NCBI GenBank assembly: GCA_023954715.1
Contig: JAGSHD010000001.1
Coordinates: 556,468 to 600,611, forward strand
Reading direction: 5' to 3'
Length of the DNA: 44,144 nt
DNA from: Candidatus Cloacimonadota bacterium
GTDB taxonomy: Bacteria > Muiribacteriota > UBA6191
Shown in pieces: positions 9,081 to 27,742 of the stretch; position 1 is the first letter of the stretch; each line of letters starts with the position of its first letter. The notes beneath the pieces are model-generated. The model was given only the letters and a program-made list of their open reading frames with translations, searched no databases and was not told the DNA's origin. A program made the translations under genes and the position numbers.

Positions 9081-11351
9081 TTAAGCCTTTATCTCTTGTA
9101 TTTTTGTCGTAACTTTATCTAATCTTTGTTGTTGCTTGGGGTCTGTCACGATTCCTTTAGATGCTTTTATAATCTCTAATGCTTTATCTAACTCACCTAA
9201 TTTTAAGCTGGTTGAAACTAAATCTCCATACCAAGAATCATTTTCGATTGTTAAAAAACCAAAAACAAGTTGTTTATAGGCATTTTTAAAATCACCTAAC
9301 TTTATGAATACTTGTGACAATAAAGAGTGTAAACGTACAGTATCGGGCAGAGTGCCATCTTGTATCATTTTTAAGATCTTTCTAAAAATAGGCCCCTGAA
9401 TCATTGATTTTGGCATTGCCGTCAATATTTCTATGAAGTTTCTATAATATCGATATTTGACATCTTGCTGATGTAATTTAGTTAGTAAAAACTCATCGCC
9501 TTTTTTAGCTTTTTTATACTGATAAGACAAGATTTCAAAGGTTAGCATACAGGTTTCATCTTGAGCAATAAGTCGTAAACATTGCTCCGTATCAACATCT
9601 TGCTCCATTTGCCGTGCTATATGAACTAAGGCCATTTGTATAAAAAAGTTTCGTAAGTATTTTTCACCAAGTTTACCGATAAACTGATGAGCTTTTCTCC
9701 ACTGTTTTTTAAGGCATAGGTCTCTTATTTTTATCATATACTCAAACAAGACATCATCAATAACACCATTAGAGCTTGAAACAAAGTCATGATCTCTAAA
9801 CCATATTTCTAAGTTTTCAATGATGATTGGATGTACATAATCTGTTGGCGTAAATTTTACATAATCATAAATTTGACGAATAGCTTGAATACCAACTCGT
9901 TGATCCACAGCACTTTCTGTAGCGATCAACTCTCTTAAATCATCTAAAACATAAGTAATCCCACCTAAAAACAAGACATAAGCTGCTACTGCTCTGTTTC
10001 TACCAGAATAGCTTTGATAATTTCGCTCTACATAGGATCGTAAGTCTGAGTTTGCCCAAAACTCTAGCCCTAGTAAAGCCGCTCTTTGGATCTCAACGTT
10101 TTCATCACCAAGTAACTCTTGATAGAGATCCTCTTTACCAGCTGGAACACTTTTAGCTATAGCATCAATACAAACTGAAACGATCTCTACATTATCTTTG
10201 TTTTTATTTAAAAGGTCATTGTAAAAGTCAAATAATGAAGCGTCTTCTAGGGTAGCTAATTGCTCAATTGCTTGAATTGTCACAAAGTCGATGTGACGAT
10301 CGCAAGCTTTCATCAATATATTTTTTACTTTTTCAGATTGGTTTCCTTGTAAAAAACGAATCACTTCTGTCAAAATATCTTCTCTTGTTTCGGATAATAA
10401 TAAAGAAGAGATCCAGTCTAACATTCTTTCATCTTTAGAAAACAACCTCGCCCCTTGAACCGCCATGATTCGAGCATCAAAAGAAGAGTTATTTAATAGA
10501 TTTGAAATTATTTTTAAACCTTTTTGTAAATCGTCATTAGACTTATTGTTTTCATATCGAATTGCCATTACTTCAGCAACGGTAGTAGCTAAACTAAAAC
10601 AATTTGAATCGGCATAGGTTTCTAACAAACTATCAGCAACTTGAGCCTCTTTTTTTAAGAAAATTAGACTTTGAATGGCTGCATTTACTACTAAATCAGC
10701 CTGCTTTTGTAAACATGACATGATTAGAGGAAACGCTATGTCTAAATCACCTTGGGCCATTACTCTTAGATAAGATGCTTTTAGATCAACACCTTCACAT
10801 TCATTGAATCGAGTCTTTAACATTTGGGTCTGAGCTTTTGAAAATTCACAAGTAAACAAAATCAATTTATCAAGTATAAATACTTCTTCTTCTTTGTTTA
10901 CATTGCCCAGGGACTCAATAACAAAATCTAAGCCTTCCGGATCTCCTAACTGACCCAAAGTAGCTATCATATCTTTTTTAACATGAGTTTCAAATTTATC
11001 CTGATTTTTTAACAAAAACTGGGTAATCTCTTTTGGTTTACCAAAATGCTTAAATGTGGAAAGAACCTCAATCTGTTGACCCATTGCTAAAGAAAAAATT
11101 TGTTTAGTCAAAACTTTGGCATAATAAGCGCTTGGCTTATTTTGGATGACTTTTATAACTGAATCAAAATATTCTTTGATATTAGATTCAGTAACCACTA
11201 GCTCGTCATATTTTGTAGATTTTAAATTTGCAATGAGCAAAATAGAAGTATGAACTAAATCCTTTTTGGGACTTTTCAATAGATCCGGTAAAAAATCAAA
11301 ATGAGGCGATAGAATTACCTCTAATAGATCTAATAATTTATTTGAAGACAT
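9081..11351 (-). CDS. large HEAT/ARM-repeat protein (756 aa), unknown function
   Basis: Repetitive alpha-helical pairs (LLxxLxDx-type repeats such as VQGARLFSKDER, IQAIEQLATLED, RAALLGLEF). No catalytic motif. Sits 6 bp upstream of the FKBP gene. Confidence 0.6.
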   Translation of the reverse strand: MSSNKLLDLLEVILSPHFDFLPDLLKSPKKDLVHTSILLIANLKSTKYDELVVTESNIKEYFDSVIKVIQNKPSAYYAKVLTKQIFSLAMGQQIEVLSTFKHFGKPKEITQFLLKNQDKFETHVKKDMIATLGQLGDPEGLDFVIESLGNVNKEEEVFILDKLILFTCEFSKAQTQMLKTRFNECEGVDLKASYLRVMAQGDLDIAFPLIMSCLQKQADLVVNAAIQSLIFLKKEAQVADSLLETYADSNCFSLATTVAEVMAIRYENNKSNDDLQKGLKIISNLLNNSSFDARIMAVQGARLFSKDERMLDWISSLLLSETREDILTEVIRFLQGNQSEKVKNILMKACDRHIDFVTIQAIEQLATLEDASLFDFYNDLLNKNKDNVEIVSVCIDAIAKSVPAGKEDLYQELLGDENVEIQRAALLGLEFWANSDLRSYVERNYQSYSGRNRAVAAYVLFLGGITYVLDDLRELIATESAVDQRVGIQAIRQIYDYVKFTPTDYVHPIIIENLEIWFRDHDFVSSSNGVIDDVLFEYMIKIRDLCLKKQWRKAHQFIGKLGEKYLRNFFIQMALVHIARQMEQDVDTEQCLRLIAQDETCMLTFEILSYQYKKAKKGDEFLLTKLHQQDVKYRYYRNFIEILTAMPKSMIQGPIFRKILKMIQDGTLPDTVRLHSLLSQVFIKLGDFKNAYKQLVFGFLTIENDSWYGDLVSTSLKLGELDKALEIIKASKGIVTDPKQQQRLDKVTTKIQEIKA

Positions 11352-15973: not shown

Positions 15974-16759
15974 CTACAGTACATTAACTGAGATTTCAAA
16001 TCCTTCATACTTTCTTATGTTTAAAGCTCCAGATTCAAACATTAGATACTGTCCTTTAATCCCAATTAGCTTATCTTCGATAATTGGAGTCTTGTCTAAG
16101 TTATAGCTTTTTACCTTTAAAGGATACTCTAAAACTGGATAATGAATCTTAGTTATCTCATCATCTATTGGTGTAAAACCCTCTTGCTCTACTACTTTTA
16201 AAGCTTCGGCTTTAGCATCAATCAACTCTTGTTCTTCATAGGTAGAGGACTTCAACATTTTTTGCCAACTGGTTCGATCCTTAAAAAACTTTTTTAGCTT
16301 TACCTCTAATAGTCCTGAAGATAGACGATCTTTTACAGAAGCTATTTTTACAGCCATGGTGGCCCCTTGATCGATCCATCTAGTGGTTTCGTTTCCACCA
16401 CGAGTAATACCTACCTTAACATTAGATGAGTAAGACAAATAAACAGTATGTGGATTAAAACAAACCTCTTGTGCAAAAGTCTCATCTCTACATGTACCCT
16501 CTTTATAATGACATTTTTCAGGACTCATTATGCAAACATCAGTACAAGCTTGTGTCATAAAACAAGGATAACAGTGCCCTTGTTTCCATACTTTTTTTTC
16601 AGCACAAGCAAAGCATAAACTATTATTGAAGTATTCTACCCGAATTGTCTTACCAATCCATTCATTCATATTTTGGGTCTTATTGCTCAATTTTAACTCG
16701 TATTGAACCTGATCTTGTAGATCAACCTTCATTTTAGATTGAATATATCCTTTTATCAT
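15974..16759 (-). CDS. Cys-rich hypothetical protein (261 aa), possible zinc-ribbon or Fe-S protein
   Basis: Nine Cys within 55 residues: CFACAEKKVWKQGHCYPCFMTQACTDVCIMSPEKCHYKEGTCRDETFAQEVC. No other motif I recognise. Confidence 0.55.
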   Translation of the reverse strand: MIKGYIQSKMKVDLQDQVQYELKLSNKTQNMNEWIGKTIRVEYFNNSLCFACAEKKVWKQGHCYPCFMTQACTDVCIMSPEKCHYKEGTCRDETFAQEVCFNPHTVYLSYSSNVKVGITRGGNETTRWIDQGATMAVKIASVKDRLSSGLLEVKLKKFFKDRTSWQKMLKSSTYEEQELIDAKAEALKVVEQEGFTPIDDEITKIHYPVLEYPLKVKSYNLDKTPIIEDKLIGIKGQYLMFESGALNIRKYEGFEISVNVL

Positions 16760-18430: not shown

Positions 18431-18436
18431 GGTCTT

Positions 18437-18459
18437 TTGAGGTATATTAAATACCTCAA
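18437..18459 (+). terminator. hairpin TTGAGGTAT-ATTAA-ATACCTCAA after the small ORF, weak terminator candidate
   Basis: Perfect 9-bp inverted repeat with a 5-nt loop. The downstream tract GTATCTTCTTTC is T-rich but not a clean U-run. Confidence 0.35.
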
Positions 18460-18597
18460 GTATCTTCTTTCAGCAAGGTTTTGAAAAGCGATTTTTTCCT
18501 CTAATTTATATTAAATAATGCAACTATTTTTTTTGTGCTTCGTAGGCTATGCTTATATACTTAAATTAAGTCCTTAATTTATTGTTGATTTCATTAG

Positions 18598-18742: not shown

Positions 18743-19846
18743 ATGTTAAAAACTTATGATATTCGCTTTAAAATCATCGCTTCCTTTTTCTTTATTATCC
18801 TGTTGACTACTGTCTTTGTTGCAACCATCAACTTTATGGCCTCACAAAACTTGATTAAAACTCAAATCCAAAACGAGTTGGATCATTCAGCATCACTAAT
18901 TATTGATAATATTGAAGGTAAAATTTCTACTGCTAGTAAACTAGCCGATAAACTGAGCAAAAGTGACGAAATCATCAATGTATCTGAAAAAACAGGTGTT
19001 GCAATGGATCATTTTGTCCAATTTGTAGACCTCTATTTCAATGCATTTTACTGGGAAAAAAATGGCAAAGTAAATCATTGTAGCTACTACGATTTTCGAA
19101 ATATAGATCACTATTTAAAAGAAAACCTTTTTGAATATAAGAATGATTTTCCTGATTATGCGCGAGACATATTAAAAAATAAGCAAGCCCTATATACTAA
19201 AACTTTTTACCCAAAACCAGACCATTTAATTTTAGCTTACGCCGTCCCAGTGTTTCGAGATAAGGTCGTTTCCGGATTGATGAGTTTTGGAATCCACATT
19301 AATGATCCAAAAATTCAAAACATTGTTGAACGAATGATCCCTTCTCACAATGGTTTTGTCGCCTTAATTGATCACCAAGGAAAGATATTGGCTAAAGGTG
19401 GAAAAAGCCCAGCTAATTTCAAACATGTGGATTTAAAAAAACTCGATACCGATATTTTACGACTTGGACAAGATACCTTTAGTTATCGTCTTCAAAAAGC
19501 AAAACAAGCTGATATCTATGTACTAGTAGCCATCAATAATAATACAGCTTTATCTATCATTGATGACTTAGCTTTTTCTATTATCATATATTCATTTATA
19601 GCTTTAATATTGTCTATTATCCTATCGAGTCGTATTGCCAATTCTTTGTCTCAACCGATCAAGGCATTAATCGATGGAATCCAAGCAATTGATCAAGGAG
19701 TATACAGTACACAGATCAATACAAAAAGTAGCGGTGAACTCAATACTGCTATCAATGCCTTCAATCAAATGGCTCAAAAACTTCAACGAAACAAAATGAT
19801 TGAAAAAATTTGGATGAATCATTGGGAACAAAATGATGAAAAATAA
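18743..19846 (+). CDS. membrane sensor-like protein: TM, periplasmic Cache-like domain, TM, HAMP, and no output domain
   Basis: TM1 at residues ~13-35 and TM2 LAFSIIIYSFIALILSIILS. Then a HAMP-like amphipathic pair (SQPIKALIDGIQAIDQGVYS...ELNTAINAFNQMAQKLQ), after which the protein ends. Confidence 0.65.
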   Translation: MLKTYDIRFKIIASFFFIILLTTVFVATINFMASQNLIKTQIQNELDHSASLIIDNIEGKISTASKLADKLSKSDEIINVSEKTGVAMDHFVQFVDLYFNAFYWEKNGKVNHCSYYDFRNIDHYLKENLFEYKNDFPDYARDILKNKQALYTKTFYPKPDHLILAYAVPVFRDKVVSGLMSFGIHINDPKIQNIVERMIPSHNGFVALIDHQGKILAKGGKSPANFKHVDLKKLDTDILRLGQDTFSYRLQKAKQADIYVLVAINNNTALSIIDDLAFSIIIYSFIALILSIILSSRIANSLSQPIKALIDGIQAIDQGVYSTQINTKSSGELNTAINAFNQMAQKLQRNKMIEKIWMNHWEQNDEK

Positions 19847-22310
19847 CAAGATACCTAAACATATCTTGACCCTATGCCTTCTAGCACTATTTTTGTCTAT
19901 TAGCATTAATTTTTCGATCGTTTTAGGGCTTAGTTTATTTTTACAAAATCTAAGCGCCGCCCAACTACCCTACTTTTATATTTTGCTGAATGTCTTAAGT
20001 ATTTTATGTGGTTTTATCTTCTTTTTTTATCGTCCTAAAAGCATTCGCTCTATTATAAAGTTCGCTATTGCCAATAGCTGTATCCTCTTGTATTTCTATC
20101 TCTCTCCAAGTTTAAGTACAAGTAAATTATACCTTTTATATATTTGTACCTGTCTATTTAATATCTACGCTTTTATCTTCTTTTGGAATTTTGTCTCCAA
20201 TACTCTTAGTTTAAAAGAGATGAAACAATATGTTGGAGTCATTTCAGGAACTAACAACCTAGGCGCAGTATTTGCATCATTATTAGTAGGCCCCGCCTTA
20301 AGGTATTTTGACTTATCCACATGTTTTCTTGGACTTTTTATAGTCTATATTTTATTAGTTTTAGTCCTCATTCCACTTAAAAAACTAGAGTTAAACCCTA
20401 AAAAGCCATCGAGTTCATCAAATAAAACGAGTCCCCAAATATATAAACATAGCTTAGTTCGCCTCACTGCTTTGTTTATTTTTCTATCTGCGTTTATGAA
20501 GTTTTCTTTGGACTTTAGATATTCTATTGCCATTTCTGAACTATTTACAACTCAAGATCAACTTGCTAGCTTTATTGGAGGGTTTAACTCCGTTTTAAAA
20601 GCAAGCGGACTCATTTGGCAAATGCTCTTTTCTGCTTATGTCTTTAAACGCCTTTCTATCGTTCAATCATTATCTGTTATGTCCATTTGTACCTGTATTT
20701 TATCTATCTTTGCTTTTTTAACTCCTAACCCAAAGTTGGTCATAGCATTTCAATTTTGCTTTTTATTTTTTCTTACCACTTTTACGTTCCCTACTTTTAA
20801 CATTTTATTTGGGGCACTCAATGATTCCATCCAAGCTAAGGCCCGTTTTTTAAATGAGGGAATATTTTACTGTTTGGCAGTTTTACTATCTGGCCTACTA
20901 ATCATAGCCCTAAGAAAATTTAGTATACCCTCTCAAACTCTCTTCTTGTTTTTAACTGTCCTATCTATATTTTGGCTATGTTTTATAGCTAAAGTGAGAG
21001 ATGCTTATATCTCAGCCTTAAACGAAAATATCAATAGCAACATTGAAGGCTCAACTGAGACTTCTTCTGTCTCATCTCTGCACTCTTTACAAACAGACTT
21101 AAATCATAAAGACCCTCAAAAGAGATTAGACGCAATTTTAACCTTAAGAAAAACGAATGATAATCAGGCAGATCGTCTGATTCTTGATGTTTTGAAAACA
21201 GAACAAAATCCGCAAGTATTAAACATTCTTTTAAAATCAACTAAAAAGGTTAGAGTAGACTCAGAGTATAAATTAGAGGACAAGTTAGACATCAATGATA
21301 CACCAGAAAACATCTGCCAATTACTACGCTCTATCTCTCTTTCTAAGAAATCATCCATAGAGCCTATTCTTCCGTTTTTAAAACATAATGACCCTATGGT
21401 TAAAATCAACGCTATACTTGCTTGCTTCATATTATCTAACGATGAAGAACATTTAAAAGAAGCATCCAAACTATTTATTCATCTTATACAATCTGATAAT
21501 GTCAATGAACGAGAAGCGGCTGCATTATTGTTTGGTGATTTATCTATGGATTGTTTTATACCTTGTCTGCAAACCATGGTTTTTGACTCAGCACCTTCTG
21601 TTAGAAGAAACGCTATTCAATCCACTATCAAACAAGCTTCTAGTTCACATATTGACATCTTAAAGTCGGCCCTCAATAGCGAAAAGGATCAGAAAAACTT
21701 AGATCTTATCCATGACTCTTTAGAAATTCAAATGGATGAGTCCAAACGAATCTTAGATCGACTTTTATTAAAAGTACCCACCATCTATCAAGAAAAGGTC
21801 TTAACAGCATTTCATAAAATTGAAGATGAAAAAATACAAAAATTAGCCTGCCAATATTTATCCATTGAGCCTCACGAGCTAACCATTGATCTTATTCGTT
21901 TGATAGCCAAAAATCCTAAAGATGCCGAGTTTATAAAAATAATGTCTGCTTGTGTTACTACCGACATCATTTACTTAGATCAACTTGTTTTAGATATTTT
22001 TCTTAGTAACATTAATGAGTTTGATCATAAAGTTTTAAGAGTTATAGCAAACTTTTTAGACTCTAAAGATACTCAAGACATCATCAGAAAGGTATTCGAA
22101 CAAATCAATAGTACACAATATTCAATGCAAAACAAACTAAGAGTGTTACAAAGACTCTTAACTTTGGACGCTAGTTTTCCTTTAAAAGAAAGTGTTTTAG
22201 AAAACTTTTACAAGCAAGAGGATCAAAAAGTTGATATCTTAGAGGAGATCATTGATCACTCAGCCTATCCTAAAACCGTCAATGAATCGATCAAATTGGT
22301 ATTTTTATAA
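19833..22310 (+). CDS. fusion of a ~12-TM MFS-like transporter domain with a C-terminal cytoplasmic HEAT-repeat domain
   Basis: N-terminal 400 aa are hydrophobic with about 12 helices. The C-terminal 400 aa show HEAT-like repeats (DPQKRLDAILTLRKT, NPQVLNILLKS, NDPMVKINAILAC, SAPSVRRNAIQS). It overlaps the Cache-HAMP gene by 14 nt. Confidence 0.65.
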   Translation: MMKNNKIPKHILTLCLLALFLSISINFSIVLGLSLFLQNLSAAQLPYFYILLNVLSILCGFIFFFYRPKSIRSIIKFAIANSCILLYFYLSPSLSTSKLYLLYICTCLFNIYAFIFFWNFVSNTLSLKEMKQYVGVISGTNNLGAVFASLLVGPALRYFDLSTCFLGLFIVYILLVLVLIPLKKLELNPKKPSSSSNKTSPQIYKHSLVRLTALFIFLSAFMKFSLDFRYSIAISELFTTQDQLASFIGGFNSVLKASGLIWQMLFSAYVFKRLSIVQSLSVMSICTCILSIFAFLTPNPKLVIAFQFCFLFFLTTFTFPTFNILFGALNDSIQAKARFLNEGIFYCLAVLLSGLLIIALRKFSIPSQTLFLFLTVLSIFWLCFIAKVRDAYISALNENINSNIEGSTETSSVSSLHSLQTDLNHKDPQKRLDAILTLRKTNDNQADRLILDVLKTEQNPQVLNILLKSTKKVRVDSEYKLEDKLDINDTPENICQLLRSISLSKKSSIEPILPFLKHNDPMVKINAILACFILSNDEEHLKEASKLFIHLIQSDNVNEREAAALLFGDLSMDCFIPCLQTMVFDSAPSVRRNAIQSTIKQASSSHIDILKSALNSEKDQKNLDLIHDSLEIQMDESKRILDRLLLKVPTIYQEKVLTAFHKIEDEKIQKLACQYLSIEPHELTIDLIRLIAKNPKDAEFIKIMSACVTTDIIYLDQLVLDIFLSNINEFDHKVLRVIANFLDSKDTQDIIRKVFEQINSTQYSMQNKLRVLQRLLTLDASFPLKESVLENFYKQEDQKVDILEEIIDHSAYPKTVNESIKLVFL

Positions 22311-22441: not shown

Positions 22442-22816
22442 ATGACTAATTCAGAAAATTTAATCTGTTCTGTTGTATGTCTCAACGAACAAAAAATACA
22501 GAATATACGTACCCAGCTAAAAAGTCAGTCTCATTTTAATTCGCAAGCAGATATGCTTAAAGTTTTAGGTCACCCTGTCCGCTTGGAGATTTTAGCTGTT
22601 TTACACTTAGAAGAAAGTTGCGTTTGCGATCTAGCTAACATATTACAAAAGCCCGTTTCTACTATTTCCCAACATTTAAAAAATATGAGAAATGTAGGTA
22701 TCTTACAATCTCGTCAAGATGGTAAATTAGTATTTTATAAACCAAATAGTTCTCCAGAAATCTGGAAACTAATTCACCCTTTCATTACAGTATTCAAGGA
22801 GAATAACTCATGCTAA
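22442..22816 (+). CDS. ArsR/SmtB-family metal-responsive transcriptional repressor (CVC metal-binding motif)
   Basis: HTH core LKVLGHPVRLEILAVL...ESCVCDLANILQKPVSTISQHLKNMRNVGIL. The ELCVCDL-type Cys pair in helix 3 is the canonical ArsR metal site. First gene of the efflux operon. Confidence 0.85.
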   Translation: MTNSENLICSVVCLNEQKIQNIRTQLKSQSHFNSQADMLKVLGHPVRLEILAVLHLEESCVCDLANILQKPVSTISQHLKNMRNVGILQSRQDGKLVFYKPNSSPEIWKLIHPFITVFKENNSC

Positions 22817-23169
22817 AGCAAATTATTATCGGATTAATTTTTATTGGAATTGGAGCTGGAGGGGCAGTGTTATATTTACAAAATCAAGCGCCTAAGCAAG
22901 AGGTTCATGTTCATGGAGCTGAATATTGTTCTAAACATAAAATAGCTGAAAGCGAATGTCCTTGGTGTGATAAAAGTCTAATTAAAAAAATGGGGATGTG
23001 TCCCGGTCATAAAGTACCCGAAGCTTTATGTAGTCGATGCAACTCTGACTTAATTCCTGGTTTTAAAGCTGAAAATGACTGGTGTGCTGGCCATGATTTA
23101 CCAGAGTCTCAATGTGATCTTTGTAAAGCTGGTCAATATCCGCCAGGTGAAGTACCTAAAGGAAGTTAA
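22810..23169 (+). CDS. small membrane-anchored Cys/His-rich metal-binding protein (119 aa)
   Basis: N-terminal TM IIIGLIFIGIGAGGAVLYL, then five C-x2-[CH] dyads: CPWC, CPGH, CSRC, CAGH, CDLC. An AGGAG RBS lies 8 nt upstream. It overlaps the arsR stop by 7 nt. Confidence 0.65.
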   Translation: MLKQIIIGLIFIGIGAGGAVLYLQNQAPKQEVHVHGAEYCSKHKIAESECPWCDKSLIKKMGMCPGHKVPEALCSRCNSDLIPGFKAENDWCAGHDLPESQCDLCKAGQYPPGEVPKGS

Positions 23170-23170
23170 T

Positions 23171-24688
23171 GTGAAACTCATTTTTAAGTTTGTAGCTTTA
23201 CTACTTTGTATAATTTGTGGTGCATCTATTGTTTTATATTTTGATGCAAGTACATCTTCTGGTCCTGATCTGCAACAATCTATATCCATAGAAAAGTGTG
23301 AGCACAAACTTGAAATAGGGACCTGTGCCTTTTGTGACCCTAAACTGATTGAATCTTTAGGCTTTTGTCATGGTCATGGAGTACCAGAGGCTTTTTGCAC
23401 TCGCTGTAACTCTGATTTAATTGTAGCATTTCAACACCTAAATGATTGGTGTAAAGAGCATAAACTACCCGAGTCCCAGTGCCAATTGTGCAAAAGTAAA
23501 AAGCAACCTAATAAAAAAACTTCTAAAATCGGGCTTAAGTTATTTGCTAATACAACTTTTAGAAGCCAAAGCAAACCAAATCAAGACTGTAAAAATCAAG
23601 ATGCATTGATTCGATTTATTGACTCAAAGATTATGAAAAAGTCTGGTATTAAAACAAGCAAACTTGCTCAAAGTATGGATCAAAATATTGTTTCATGCAA
23701 TGCCCAAATCAAGTATAACCAAAATAAATTGGCACATATTACGCCCCGTGCTAAGGGTGTTTTAACTACAATATCTAAAGACATAGGAGACAGCGTATTA
23801 CAGGGTGAAGTTTTAGCTAAAATTCACTCTAATGAGTTTTCTATAGCCAAGTCCGAGTACTTCCAAGCTCTTACCTTAGTCAAACTATGGGAGCAAAATC
23901 ATCAATCTGAACTAGCCTTGCAACAAGATGGCGCAACCTCTTCAAGAGAAGTATTACAAACAAAAACTAAGTTAGTAGAGAGTCAAATTATCGTCGAAAA
24001 GAGTCTTCAAAAACTACGAAATCTCGGTTTAAATAGTGATCAAATCAAGCACTTAAAAGCAAGTAGTAAATCTGACTCGAAATTATCAATTTTGTCCCCT
24101 TTTAATGGTCACATTAGTAAAAGACATGCGGTTACAGGTGAAATGGTAACTACCTCTAAATCTTTATTTACTGTTGTAGATACAAGCAAAATGTGGGCGT
24201 TTTTAGATATCCTTCCCAGTGATTTGACTAAAGTTAATATTGGGCAAAATGTAGAGGTTAAAATACCGGAGTTATCCCCTCTTTTATTTTCTGGGGTTAT
24301 CTCTTGGATTGATAGTGCTATCAGTGAGTCATCTCGTACTCTTAAAGCCAAAGTAGAGTTAAGTAATCAAAATCAAATGCTTAAGTCTGGTATGTTTGGT
24401 ACGGCTAATATTATTATCAATAACAATATTAACTCCTTACTTGTTCATAAGAGTTCTGTCCAATGGGATGGATGTTGCAACGTTATCTTTATCAAAAACA
24501 GCCCTCAAAGTTTTATAACTAAAAAGGTTACTCTTAAACCTTCGGGGGTAAATAAGGATTACTATTTAGCTCAAGGTGATATCAAAACAAATGATGAAGT
24601 AGCAACTACAGGGTCTTTTTTACTGAAAACTGAGCTTATGAAAGATAATATTGGTGCAGGATGTTGCGAAGCTGACTCAGGTAAGTAA
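23171..24688 (+). CDS. heavy-metal RND membrane fusion protein (CusB/CzcB-like) with an N-terminal Cys/His-rich module
   Basis: HlyD/MFP beta-barrel and lipoyl-like regions (ITPRAKGVLTTISKDIGDSVLQGEVLAKI, SPFNGHISKRHAVTGEMV). I set the start to GTG 23171 (MKLIFKFVALLLCIICGASIV, a signal/TM), one nt after the TAA of the preceding gene. The track's 23075 start would overlap that gene by 95 nt. Confidence 0.8.
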   Translation: MKLIFKFVALLLCIICGASIVLYFDASTSSGPDLQQSISIEKCEHKLEIGTCAFCDPKLIESLGFCHGHGVPEAFCTRCNSDLIVAFQHLNDWCKEHKLPESQCQLCKSKKQPNKKTSKIGLKLFANTTFRSQSKPNQDCKNQDALIRFIDSKIMKKSGIKTSKLAQSMDQNIVSCNAQIKYNQNKLAHITPRAKGVLTTISKDIGDSVLQGEVLAKIHSNEFSIAKSEYFQALTLVKLWEQNHQSELALQQDGATSSREVLQTKTKLVESQIIVEKSLQKLRNLGLNSDQIKHLKASSKSDSKLSILSPFNGHISKRHAVTGEMVTTSKSLFTVVDTSKMWAFLDILPSDLTKVNIGQNVEVKIPELSPLLFSGVISWIDSAISESSRTLKAKVELSNQNQMLKSGMFGTANIIINNNINSLLVHKSSVQWDGCCNVIFIKNSPQSFITKKVTLKPSGVNKDYYLAQGDIKTNDEVATTGSFLLKTELMKDNIGAGCCEADSGK

Positions 24689-27600
24689 ATGTTAAATTAT
24701 ATTATTTCTTGGTCTTTAAAAAATAGATTTTTAGTTCTTTTTGCTACTTTAGTCATCATCATCATGGGTACCTACTCATTAATTAAGTTACCCATTGATG
24801 CCTTCCCTGATATTACTCCGATACAGGTTCAAATCAATACGATTGCACCCACATTAACTCCCTTGGAGATTGAGCAACAAATCAGTTATCAGATTGAAAG
24901 ATCAATCAGTGGTCTACCTGCCTTAAGTAACGTTAGATCAATCTCAAAATATGGATTTTCACAGGTTATTGTCACTTTTGACGAAGGTACTGATATTTAC
25001 TTTGCAAGGCAACTTGTTTCTGAGAAAATTCAAAGTATTTCTTTACCAAGTGGTATTTCACCACCATCATTGGGGCCTGTTTCAACTGGCTTAGGTGAAG
25101 TTTTTCACTATCTAATCAAAGGTAAAGATTACTCTTTACAAGAGTTAACTACTATACACAATTGGATTATCAAACCAAGACTTGAGTCCACCCCCGGAGT
25201 CGCAGAAATCAATACTTGGGGAGGAGAAAAAAAGCAGTATCAAGTCATTATAGATTTAAACTCTCTTTTGAAATACAAGCTTCTACTATCGGATGTACTC
25301 TCTGCACTAAAAGATAATAATCTAAATGTGGGAGGGGGTAATATCACCCAGAATGGAGAGTATCACTTAGTTCATGGGATTGGTATTAAAACCAGTATTG
25401 ATGAAATCAAAAATACTTCTATTTCTATAAAAGAGGGCACTCCCATTTTAATTAGTGATGTAGCTTCTGTTCAATTTGGCCACGAGATTCGTAGAGGAGC
25501 TGTTACTGTTAATGCAAAAGGTGAAGGAGTCTTAGGTCTTGGTTTTATGCTCAAAGGTGAAAATAGCTATGAGATCACTCAAAGATTAGCAAATAAAGTT
25601 AAAGAGATTCAAAAGTATTTACCTAAGGGTGTACAAATTCAACCTTTATATCAACGTACTGATCTTATTGATCAAGTTATTTATACTGTCAAAGAAAACC
25701 TTTTGGCGGGTGCCTTACTTGTTATCTCTATTTTGTTTTGTTTTTTAGGTAATTTACGAGCAGGTTTAATTGTTGCAGCCGCTATCCCCCTTTCGATGTT
25801 ATTTGCGTTTATAGAAATGTTACAGTTTGGTATTGCAGGTAGCTTAATGAGTTTAGGAGCAATTGATTTTGGGCTTATTGTAGATAGCTCGGTCATATTA
25901 GTTGAAAATAGTTTACGTAAAATCGCTGAAAGTGATGAAGAAACTTCCCTAGTCGAGGTCATCGAACAAGCTACTATTGAAGTAAGAAAGCCAACTATGT
26001 TTGGCGAACTCATCATCATGATTGTGTTTATTCCTATTTTGGCACTAGAAGGTGTAGAGGGTAAATTGTTTATCCCTATGGCGTTAACTATGATTTTCGC
26101 TCTATTTGGTTCACTAATTATGTCACTTACTTTAACTCCTGTTTTAGCTAGCTTTCTACTCAAAAAAGACTCAAAAGAAAAACCTAGTTTAATCATGAAC
26201 TTCTGTACAAAAGTTTATCATCCAATTTTAAATACAGCCATTCGTTTTAGAACTATTTTTGTTGGAGCTGGTATTTGTTTATTGGCCTTTGGAGGGTATT
26301 TAGGATCTCAACTAGGTCGAGAGTTTATCCCTAGACTTTCAGAAATGAGCATCGTTATTAATACGGTACGTTTAGCTGGTGTTTCTTTGGAGGAATCCAT
26401 TCGCTATGGATCAAAACTAGAGCAAGTCCTGCTCGATAAATTCCCTGATGAGATAAAAGATATATGGACTCGTACTGGGACAGCCGAAACGGCTACTGAC
26501 CCTATGGGTATAGAGTTAAGCGATGTATTTATTTCACTTAAAGATAGAAAGCTTTGGACTAAAGCTAAAACACAAGAGCAATTAGAAAACTCTATACGCC
26601 AAGAGCTTGAGGGAATGCCCGGTATGAAGATGATTTTCACCCAAGCCATTGAAATGAGAGTCAATGAAATGGTTGCAGGAATTCGATCTGATCTTGGTAT
26701 TAAGCTCTTTGGTGATAATCTAGACATCCTCAAAGAAAAGGCCAGTGAAATAAAATCACTACTTGAAAATATACCAGGAAGCCAAGATATATCCGTGGAG
26801 CAGATTACAGGTCAGCCTCTTCTTGAAGTCAAAGTTAAGCAATCGGCTCTAACTCGCTATGGAGTCTCATCAAAAGAGGTTTTACAATTTATCGAAGCTC
26901 TAGGTACTATAAAAACTGGAGAAATACGTGAAGATCAAAAGAGGTTTGATTTAGTACTTCGTTTACCCGACTACTTTAGACACAAACTAGAAAACATCCA
27001 AGAGATTACCATGCAAACAAAAAGCGGTAAGATTTTGCCTCTTACTGATCTTGTCTATATTCAGCAAAAAGAAGGCCCTTCTACTATTTCTAGAGAGTGG
27101 CAAAAGCGCCGAATCATTATTCAAAGTAATGTTCGTAATCGAGATCTTGCTAGCTATGTGCGTGAAGTTCAAAAAACTCTTGATCAAAAATTAGTATTAC
27201 CTTCTGGCTACCATGTTAGTTATGGTGGGCAATATGAAAGCCTTCAGCGTGCCCAAACCCGTTTGATGTTTATTGTACCTATTACTCTAATATTAATCTT
27301 TGTCATCCTTTATATGAGTACTGGTATTTTTATCGATAGTTTGATTATCTTTACTGGTGCGCCTTTTGCTGCTCTTGGTGGAGTCATAATGCTTATTTTA
27401 CGTGATATGCCTTTTACAATTGCTGCTGGAGTTGGTTTTGTTGCTGTTTGCGGAGTCGCTATGCTCAATGGATTAGTTATGATGAGTACCATTAGACAAG
27501 GAATATCTAACAATCTAACTGTAGAAGATGCTGTCCATAGAGGTGCACTTTTACGATTAAGACCCGTTTTGATTACAGCTCTTGTTGCTGGTATTGGATT

Positions 27601-27742
27601 TATCCCTATGGCATTTAACACCGGAGTCGGAGCAGAGATCCAAAGACCTCTTGCTACCGTTGTCCTAGGAGGAGTCATTGCAGATAATTTACTAACTTTG
27701 CTTATCTTGCCTGCATTGGCCGTTAGTTTTATTCGTAAATAA
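24689..27742 (+). CDS. heavy-metal efflux RND pump (CusA/CzcA HME family)
   Basis: 1017 aa with 12 TM. The HME signature GAIDFGLIVDSSVILVEN (25861..25910) is present, along with two large periplasmic loops. The ATG directly follows the TAA of the adaptor gene. Confidence 0.9.
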   Translation: MLNYIISWSLKNRFLVLFATLVIIIMGTYSLIKLPIDAFPDITPIQVQINTIAPTLTPLEIEQQISYQIERSISGLPALSNVRSISKYGFSQVIVTFDEGTDIYFARQLVSEKIQSISLPSGISPPSLGPVSTGLGEVFHYLIKGKDYSLQELTTIHNWIIKPRLESTPGVAEINTWGGEKKQYQVIIDLNSLLKYKLLLSDVLSALKDNNLNVGGGNITQNGEYHLVHGIGIKTSIDEIKNTSISIKEGTPILISDVASVQFGHEIRRGAVTVNAKGEGVLGLGFMLKGENSYEITQRLANKVKEIQKYLPKGVQIQPLYQRTDLIDQVIYTVKENLLAGALLVISILFCFLGNLRAGLIVAAAIPLSMLFAFIEMLQFGIAGSLMSLGAIDFGLIVDSSVILVENSLRKIAESDEETSLVEVIEQATIEVRKPTMFGELIIMIVFIPILALEGVEGKLFIPMALTMIFALFGSLIMSLTLTPVLASFLLKKDSKEKPSLIMNFCTKVYHPILNTAIRFRTIFVGAGICLLAFGGYLGSQLGREFIPRLSEMSIVINTVRLAGVSLEESIRYGSKLEQVLLDKFPDEIKDIWTRTGTAETATDPMGIELSDVFISLKDRKLWTKAKTQEQLENSIRQELEGMPGMKMIFTQAIEMRVNEMVAGIRSDLGIKLFGDNLDILKEKASEIKSLLENIPGSQDISVEQITGQPLLEVKVKQSALTRYGVSSKEVLQFIEALGTIKTGEIREDQKRFDLVLRLPDYFRHKLENIQEITMQTKSGKILPLTDLVYIQQKEGPSTISREWQKRRIIIQSNVRNRDLASYVREVQKTLDQKLVLPSGYHVSYGGQYESLQRAQTRLMFIVPITLILIFVILYMSTGIFIDSLIIFTGAPFAALGGVIMLILRDMPFTIAAGVGFVAVCGVAMLNGLVMMSTIRQGISNNLTVEDAVHRGALLRLRPVLITALVAGIGFIPMAFNTGVGAEIQRPLATVVLGGVIADNLLTLLILPALAVSFIRK

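Follow-up and report, generated by a model that had tools for sequence, protein, structure and literature searches.

A membrane receptor that ends behind its HAMP domain and the NTT-HEAT-like protein encoded beside it

Introduction

What does a membrane receptor act on when its chain ends just behind the HAMP domain? Two overlapping genes of a Candidatus Cloacimonadota bacterium (assembly GCA_023954715.1, contig JAGSHD010000001.1, positions 556,468 to 600,611) raise this question. All coordinates below refer to this stretch of 44,144 nucleotides (nt), here called the window, which has a GC content of ~33%. Gene 1 (18743..19846, + strand) encodes an output-less double-Cache/HAMP membrane receptor of 367 amino acids (aa), as judged from the list of open reading frames (ORFs), Pfam, an AlphaFold2 (AF2) model and full-length homologues of 360-415 aa. 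Gene 2 (19833..22310, + strand; NCBI locus tag KC646_02320) encodes an 825-aa protein with an NTT-like domain of 12 transmembrane (TM) helices and HEAT repeats, as judged from the ORF list, Pfam and homologues found 3' of the receptor gene. A sequence-only reading of the window had taken the two proteins for one unit, a receptor and an MFS-like transporter between which the HAMP signal passes in trans. We have followed up this idea by homology searches, structure prediction and comparison of loci. The sequence data support a two-protein functional unit well, and we suggest that the receptor could be the regulatory subunit of its neighbour.

Results

A receptor family that ends behind the HAMP domain

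The order TM helix, Cache domain, TM helix and HAMP domain, with a stop soon afterwards, had been read from the letters alone, and the ORF (18743..19846), Pfam, hydropathy and the AF2 model all agree with it. TM1 (residues ~11-29, 18773..18829, +) was placed by hydropathy and lies inside a model helix that spans residues 7-72. It is followed by a periplasmic double-Cache sensor domain of two alpha/beta modules (residues ~33-265, 18839..19537, +), by TM2 (residues ~276-297, 19568..19633, +; hydropathy and model helix 266-317) and, directly after TM2, by the HAMP domain (residues 298-348, 19634..19786, +). HAMP is recognized by PF00672 with 38.1 bits against a cut-off of 25. The match to dCache_1 (residues 36-219, E 7.6e-7) reaches 29.3 bits and is thus under the curated cut-off of 45, and the assignment of the sensor domain also draws on the model and on Foldseek. 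The AF2 model, built with 60 family sequences, has a predicted local distance difference test score (pLDDT) of 95.0 and a predicted TM-score (pTM) of 0.82. In it, TM1 continues into the long helix 7-72, the alpha/beta modules occupy residues 100-185 and 204-265, TM2 and the HAMP helix AS1 form helix 266-317, and after a connector the HAMP helix AS2 runs on as a single helix to residue 366. Foldseek matches in the PDB are the double-Cache ligand-binding domains of Mlp24, PctA, PctC, Tlp3, CtaA and KinD (E 1e-10 to 1e-8). The receptor is presumably dimeric, by analogy with other HAMP receptors.

The chain ends 19 residues past HAMP. No output domain (DHp-CA, MCP signal, GGDEF, cyclase or PP2C) follows HAMP in the 367-aa protein, and its sequence has no CXXCH haem c motif. 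The last residues form a conserved helical tail (residues 349-367, 19787..19843, +) with the motif K-x-R-x-h-E-x-h-W-x-x-x-W, which was delimited from the C-termini of the family, column conservation and the AF2 model.

When 1.84 billion cluster representatives were searched exhaustively with HMMER, the receptor had 536 matches at E<=1e-3; 67 of them reach <=1e-10 and 12 reach <=1e-30. Among the best 150 matches, 93 are 330-420 aa long, and most align query residues ~7-362 up to their own C-terminus. The best homologues have 360-415 aa, align end to end and share the tail; orthologues fused to a kinase or a methyl-accepting chemotaxis protein (MCP), which would have marked gene 1 as a fragment, did not turn up among them. 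Proteins of kinase or MCP length (470-900 aa) appear only at E >1e-8, and most of these match TM2/HAMP only; a few align weakly over both Cache and HAMP (P0101, P0111, P0121, P0138 and P0144; 603-905 aa, E 2e-7 to 7e-6). The family signature after AS2 is A-F-N-x-M-x-x-K-L-x-K-x-R-x-h-E/G-x-h-W, often followed by x-x-x-W and then by a short variable end. In the 60-member receptor alignment, G319, W357 and S181 are invariant, and E332 and N341 are nearly so. Conservation peaks in HAMP and the tail, not in the ligand pocket, and the periplasmic domain mainly keeps structural Gly and Pro. This pattern is as expected if ligand specificity varies and the cytoplasmic output surface is fixed. Judged by sequence, the receptor is a member of a sizeable output-less family with a Trp-tail signature, and we propose that the tail is the output or partner-contact element.

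The short chain might also be explained as a truncated or frameshifted sensor kinase or chemoreceptor, that is, a pseudogene or assembly artefact that happens to lie next to a transporter gene. The HAMP region does resemble that of many histidine kinases (NCBIfam models for many kinases matched, over the TM2-HAMP stretch only), and the source is a metagenome-assembled genome (MAG). However, dozens of independent homologues of 360-415 aa stop at the same point with the tail conserved, the downstream frame encodes a conserved and unrelated protein, and the same architecture is present in 19 loci from unrelated samples. Because full-length short homologues carry the conserved tail, the receptor is not truncated, and we give the explanation by truncation practically no weight.

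The receptor gene and the NTT-HEAT gene are found together in distant loci

Loci of the family were gathered by look-ups of single family members (L001, L006, L102-L106), by a genome scan, which yielded L007 and L008 (the latter identical to L006), and by a metagenome scan with a degenerate DNA pattern for AS2 plus the tail. This pattern has one match in the window versus none in shuffled sequences, and among 86 collected loci it found only the four known family loci. The metagenome scan gave 15 matches. In 10 of them the next gene downstream encodes a homologue of the partner, recognized by hmmsearch with E 1e-87 to 9e-4, where the high end of the range stems from truncated fragments. Four loci (L087, L090, L093 and L099) have no ORF through the pattern match and were rejected as chance, and L098, which ends at the contig edge and is uninformative, was left out of the pairing count.

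Of the 19 informative loci, 17 have a gene for an NTT-HEAT homologue immediately after the receptor gene and on the same strand (the window, L001, L006, L088, L089, L091, L092, L094-L097, L100, L101, L103, L104, L105 and L106). The pair had been expected to recur elsewhere if it was a unit, and it does so down to ~20% identity. At this limit stands L104, a branch with an L-G-x-L-W variant of the tail, whose partner is recognized by the family hidden Markov model with E 3.4e-21. The pair in L106 sits on a contig of 5.18 Mb. Where the junction was analysed, the partner start overlaps the receptor stop by 4-19 nt in 11 of 13 loci (up to 25 nt if another start codon is chosen in L091). Beyond the pair, the flanks differ, and none of the neighbouring genes is present at every locus. 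Across the seven complete pairs, the pairwise-identity matrix of one protein follows that of the other (r=0.86, Mantel p ~0.001), which at the level of sequence shows co-inheritance without partner swapping, not contact by itself.

Could the two genes simply be co-transcribed and functionally independent? The pairing is missing in two of the 19 loci, as independence would allow. On the other hand, adjacency, order and strand are kept at ~20-35% identity, in loci from ~33% GC to GC-rich and among unrelated neighbours; start and stop codons overlap recurrently, and the two proteins co-diverge. We therefore consider independence very improbable. The conserved adjacency supports the earlier idea of one unit, and on sequence grounds a two-protein functional unit is well supported.

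Other searches gave little. Word-index homology searches with either protein returned one and three matches, and a profile of three sequences added three remote relatives. A scan of genome contigs with a partner alignment found no relatives. The genome scan that yielded L007 and L008 used a generic HAMP AS2 motif derived from the 11 closest receptors and gave 80 loci, among which these two were the only family members; the other 78 encode ordinary kinases, MCPs and cyclases with 200-800 residues after HAMP and were discarded.

Gene 2 encodes a divergent NTT-like domain joined to a HEAT solenoid

The product of gene 2 begins with a 12-TM (6+6) NTT/TLC-like domain of the MFS fold (residues 9-406, 19857..21050, +), which was delimited from the AF2 helices, the alignment of a TM-only profile with 9j3n_A and Foldseek. 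A cytoplasmic HEAT/alpha-solenoid domain follows (residues 412-825, 21066..22307, +), defined by Pfam HEAT_2 and HEAT, the family profile and the model, which is confident there only for residues ~480-630. In the window protein, HEAT_2 (PF13646) scores 46.5 bits against a cut-off of 27.7, and HEAT (PF02985) scores 26.5 bits, above its cut-off; HEAT_2 is present in all nine partners scanned. The AF2 model of gene 2, made with six sequences, is of medium quality (pLDDT 69.7). It has 12 helices in a 6+6 arrangement over residues 9-406, mostly at pLDDT 75-90 and with a Lys-rich central loop, and helical hairpins over residues 412-824. Thus, the first description of gene 2 as a ~12-TM protein with a C-terminal half of HEAT repeats was right.

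The same description had called the membrane half MFS-like. The fold is indeed that of the MFS (MFS_1 matches with E 5e-7, just under its Pfam cut-off), but profile and Foldseek comparisons point to a divergent NTT/TLC-type domain, not to a generic MFS transporter. A profile of the nine partners matches PBS/alphaRep-type HEAT proteins strongly, down to E 5e-41, and over its membrane part it matches only plant and chlamydial ATP/ADP translocators (9j3j_A, E 3.8e-5; 9j3n_A, E 6.6e-4). When the TM-only family profile is used, NTT1 of C. pneumoniae (9j3n_A) is found with E 2.1e-7 (profile 8-401, chain 25-495), and no other PDB transporter appears at E<1. The alignment with NTT1 includes the motif F-W-x-F-x-N...E-x-K. 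In Foldseek, NTT structures fill the first four ranks (E 3.5e-6 to 1.5e-5), and NorA, VMAT2 and further MFS proteins come after them.

Three remote relatives, P0005-P0007, are linked by profiles with E 1e-18 to 1e-34. P0006 scores 20.7 bits for TLC against a cut-off of 21, and its gene overlaps a downstream cyclic-nucleotide (cNMP)-binding gene; P0007 has a fused cNMP-binding domain. Pfam cNMP_binding has no match in any of the nine partners. At the level of profiles and predicted fold, it is well supported that the 12-TM half is a divergent NTT/TLC (ATP/ADP-translocase-type) domain, and equally that the window protein, whose own sequence does not reach the Pfam TLC cut-off, belongs to the NTT-HEAT class as a divergent member or stands beside it as a sister.

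An NTT-like fold leaves room for a domain that does not transport. The pair would then be a signalling complex in which the 12-TM domain serves as an anchor or transceptor and the HEAT domain recruits cytoplasmic targets under the control of the receptor. This would suit the compact TM domain (~400 aa versus ~480-500 in NTTs) with its few conserved charges, the failure of the Pfam thresholds for TLC and MFS_1, and a HEAT domain as large as the TM domain. Against it, the complete 12-helix 6+6 MFS fold is kept at pLDDT 80-90, and so is the NTT-type motif. We regard a non-transporting complex as rather unlikely.

Gene overlap and probable translational coupling

The overlap of 14 nt between gene 1 and gene 2 (19833..19846, +) that had been noticed at the outset is real, and an overlap of ORFs by chance was considered and rejected. 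Gene 2 starts with ATG at 19833. A Shine-Dalgarno-like GGGA (19824..19827, +) lies 5 nt upstream, within the codons for W361 and E362 of gene 1. Because this element is inside the final codons of gene 1 and the genes overlap, the two genes are probably translationally coupled, judging from the sequence; the earlier term co-translated is better replaced by this wording. At other loci, similar GGAG/GGA sequences are found 5' of the partner start. In the window (19811-19832) and in L091, L092, L095, L096 and L100, the GGAG/GGGA sequence, 5-12 nt 5' of the partner start, is formed by the conserved Trp codons in the tail of the receptor (..TGG AGx / TGG GAA..).

Neighbouring genes

Upstream of gene 1, a terminator-like hairpin (18436..18460, +) was found by a consensus scan, which is weak evidence; it likely marks the boundary of the two-gene unit and is separated from gene 1 by an AT-rich spacer of ~280 nt. 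A promoter scan did no better than shuffled sequences (18 found versus 21 expected) and was not used. Farther upstream on the opposite strand (15974-16759, -) lies a gene for a DUF2797 protein (275 bits) with several Cys motifs. It adjoins the ribosomal genes rpsF-ssb-rpsR and is unrelated to the pair.

A metal-efflux cluster starts 131 nt 3' of gene 2 with an ArsR regulator. It occupies 22442-27742 (+) and comprises an ArsR-family regulator (HTH_5), a 119-aa Cys-rich protein, a CusB/HlyD_D23 adaptor, whose Cys/His-rich N-terminal extension overlaps the preceding ORF, and an RND pump of 1017 aa. In L095 a fragment of an RND pump lies just 5' of the receptor gene. The proximity of RND pumps in these two loci is probably a coincidence.

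In a GC-rich subclade, a third gene on the same strand abuts or overlaps the end of the NTT-HEAT gene and encodes a PhnD-like periplasmic binding protein (L088:4116-5027(+), L089:3318-4418(+), L091:5128-6078(-) and L095:5018-5875(+)). PF12974 (Phosphonate-bd) matches with E 3e-47 to 3e-59 in the three loci scanned, and the gene of L089 was assigned by BLAST clustering only. This gene is absent at the window locus. Its product might present a ligand to the Cache domain.

The orthologous locus L001, 32% identical, has a gene for an NT5C-type 5'-nucleotidase after the NTT-HEAT gene (10563-11177(+); 28.5 bits, above the cut-off), which is a hint, from this single locus, of a nucleotide-related substrate. 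Near the L001 pair there are, in addition, genes for a guanylate-cyclase-domain protein and for a cNMP-binding/EAL protein. Just 5' of the receptor gene and on the same strand, a protein of ~300 aa is encoded in three related metagenome loci, L094 (9752-10648(-)), L098 (1223-2158(-)) and L101 (1983-2885(-)); two of these three proteins were scanned and have no Pfam match. At the same position L001 has a gene for a 294-aa protein that likewise has no Pfam match and does not cluster with the others by BLAST.

Among the remote relatives, the gene after P0005 (L004:9057-11039(+)) encodes a 660-aa protein that combines a HAMP domain with a SpoIIE (PP2C) phosphatase domain; over its Cache-like N-terminal half, hhalign aligns it with the output-less receptor family at a probability of 93%. 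Genes for an nSTAND1-WD40 NTPase and an outer-membrane beta-barrel lie downstream of P0005 and P0007 (L004/L005).

Discussion

We suggest that the Cache-HAMP receptor is a regulatory subunit of the NTT-HEAT protein and switches its NTT-like domain in trans, an interpretation that we hold somewhat more probable than its negation. It is the most economical one, since the receptor lacks an intrinsic output, its HAMP domain and tail are the most constrained parts, it is made together with a solenoid protein, and relatives of that protein have a sensor, the cyclic-nucleotide-binding domain (cNBD), in the equivalent position. A ligand would bind to the periplasmic double Cache and alter the conformation of TM2, HAMP and the tail. 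The partner would read this change in trans, most probably through a HEAT solenoid that grips the HAMP and tail helices, and contacts between TM helices may also carry the signal. The activity of the NTT-like domain would thereby be switched, presumably the transport of some substrate, possibly a nucleotide. The receptor would fill the role that the adjacent or fused cNBD has in other NTT-HEAT proteins, and would report an extracytoplasmic signal. A stricter version, in which HAMP and the Trp tail directly open or close an NTT-type carrier via the HEAT solenoid, would amount to a new type of receptor-gated transporter; this we put forward tentatively, as a possibility that we doubt more than we believe.

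Several observations weigh against the regulatory-subunit interpretation. In the first place, the similarity to NTTs is remote. PF03219 (TLC) has no single-sequence match in the window protein, and among the nine partners it matches one, below threshold (16.5 bits versus 21); the E-values of the NTT structures in Foldseek are only ~10-fold better than those of NorA or VMAT2. The TM core has few conserved charges, so that nucleotide transport, or any transport, stays putative. The C-terminal third of the HEAT domain, which is the presumed receiver, is poorly modelled (pLDDT <55). Secondly, adjacency is not obligatory, because two members of the family have no adjacent partner: in L007, from a Vulcanimicrobiota MAG, GNAT and NHL-propeller genes lie downstream on the other strand, and in L102 a gene for an unrelated secreted protein lies 500 nt downstream. 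Both retain the tail motif. Thirdly, the Mantel correlation is equally expected from simple co-inheritance. The correlation with the receptor falls from r=0.78 for the TM part to r=0.45 for the HEAT part; this and the sparse charges of the TM core are mild points against HEAT as the main contact and against nucleotide transport, respectively. In addition, the conservation of the Trp codons in the tail may partly act at the RNA level, as the ribosome-binding site of gene 2, although W357 is kept in L007, which has no downstream partner. Finally, a physical complex of the two proteins is something that we infer, and the same holds for the contact between HAMP/tail and HEAT, for which of the two controls the other, and for a transport activity and its substrate.

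The unpaired members also bear on a different arrangement of control. The NTT-HEAT protein could be a co-sensor ("trigger transporter") or a scaffold, and the Cache-HAMP protein with its tail would signal to an effector encoded elsewhere, such as a kinase, phosphatase or cyclase. Co-sensing by transporter and sensor is established for DctA-DcuS, BceAB-BceS and LysP-CadC, and the tail kept in L007 and L102 suggests that it can work without an adjacent partner. The Cache-like-HAMP-SpoIIE phosphatase gene that follows the distant relative P0005, and the guanylate-cyclase-domain and cNMP-binding/EAL genes near the L001 pair, could be taken as pointers to such effectors. Yet no third gene is conserved across the loci, the tight overlap of start and stop indicates a stoichiometric pairing of these two proteins, and HEAT solenoids are typically protein-binding receivers. 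For these reasons we judge control in the reverse direction, or of a third party, to be unlikely.

With regard to novelty, the sequence-only reading had supposed that the arrangement was undescribed. This appears to be true of the specific Cache-HAMP/NTT-HEAT pairing, which was not found in the literature searched, a body of text that misses most subscription journals and in which the three papers that name NTT-HEAT proteins draw no link to HAMP or Cache. It does not extend to the elements, as NTT-HEAT proteins with a cNBD (PMC5381601) and an output-less Cache-HAMP receptor acting in trans (10.64898/2026.05.25.727664) are known. Each half is thus known in kind, and what appears to be undescribed is the combination of an output-less double-Cache/HAMP family with a Trp tail and a divergent NTT-HEAT clade.

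The combination matters in several ways. NTT-HEAT proteins occur widely among free-living bacteria, cyanobacteria, chlamydiae and oomycetes, and they are without a known function or regulatory logic. The clade described here has an extracytoplasmic Cache-HAMP receptor in place of the usual cytoplasmic cNMP sensor, and this supports the idea that the HEAT domain is a receiver for regulatory modules. The receptor family recurs across many uncultured bacteria directly 5' of an NTT-HEAT gene, which suggests that its target is the transporter-like protein, not a kinase. If the stricter version is true, in which the receptor directly gates a carrier, this would be the first HAMP domain that controls a transporter instead of an enzyme or a chemotaxis array. 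It would also be the first functional handle on the NTT-HEAT family, in which sensor modules such as the cNBD and Cache-HAMP would be interchangeable gates. The two proteins make a tractable system, and the invariant Trp tail is a sharply defined candidate for the contact element.

How does the pair compare with known systems? According to Major, Embley & Williams (2017, Genome Biol Evol; PMC5381601), NTT-HEAT fusions are monophyletic and widespread, often have a cNBD fused to them or encoded next to them, and lack an assigned function. Like them, gene 2 encodes C-terminal HEAT repeats of the PBS type; its N-terminal 12-TM domain resembles NTTs (family PF03219) in profile and predicted fold, and a small sensor module is encoded immediately adjacent, often with overlap. 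The remote relatives P0006 and P0007 show the cNBD arrangement published for that class (PMC5381601). The pair differs in that the sensor is a separate upstream membrane receptor with a double Cache and HAMP, not a downstream or fused cytoplasmic cNBD, and in that the NTT domain is much more divergent, with ~400 aa and a score below the Pfam TLC threshold.

For the receptor, the closest parallel in architecture is the Cache_heme-HAMP (CHH) receptor of Pseudomonas azotoformans, which shares an operon with its partner, a Ser/Thr kinase (Deshpande et al., bioRxiv 2026; 10.64898/2026.05.25.727664). CHH is an output-less Cache-HAMP receptor that signals in trans, with alpha-helical modules of the partner binding to HAMP, and HAMP domains uncoupled from an output are described as uncommon (10.64898/2026.05.25.727664). 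Here, too, HAMP has no intrinsic output and the partner is in the same operon, which is a likeness of architecture. Since the HAMP domain of CHH is bound by helical modules of its partner, it provides a mechanistic precedent for signalling in trans in the present pair. CHH has a single Cache with c-type haem (CXXCH in an alpha-helical insertion), whereas the receptor here has a haem-less double Cache; the partner of CHH is a soluble kinase and not a membrane NTT-HEAT protein; and the conserved Trp tail behind HAMP is a feature of the present family. This family is a second, unrelated example of a HAMP-terminated receptor, which suggests that this class is broader than one haem-sensor family.

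The receptor also resembles dCache_1 chemoreceptors and sensor kinases such as PctA, Mlp24, Tlp3 and KinD, with which it shares TM1, a long helix, two PAS-like modules, TM2 and HAMP. Those proteins continue into MCP or DHp/CA domains, whereas this chain stops ~19 residues after HAMP. Lastly, membrane sensors and transporters are known to work as units in DctA-DcuS, BceAB-BceS, LysP-CadC and UhpC-UhpB. In pairs of this type the output, a kinase or DNA-binding domain, belongs to the sensor, which receives its information from the transporter. In the pair described here the sensor is output-less, and the transporter-like protein is the likely output.

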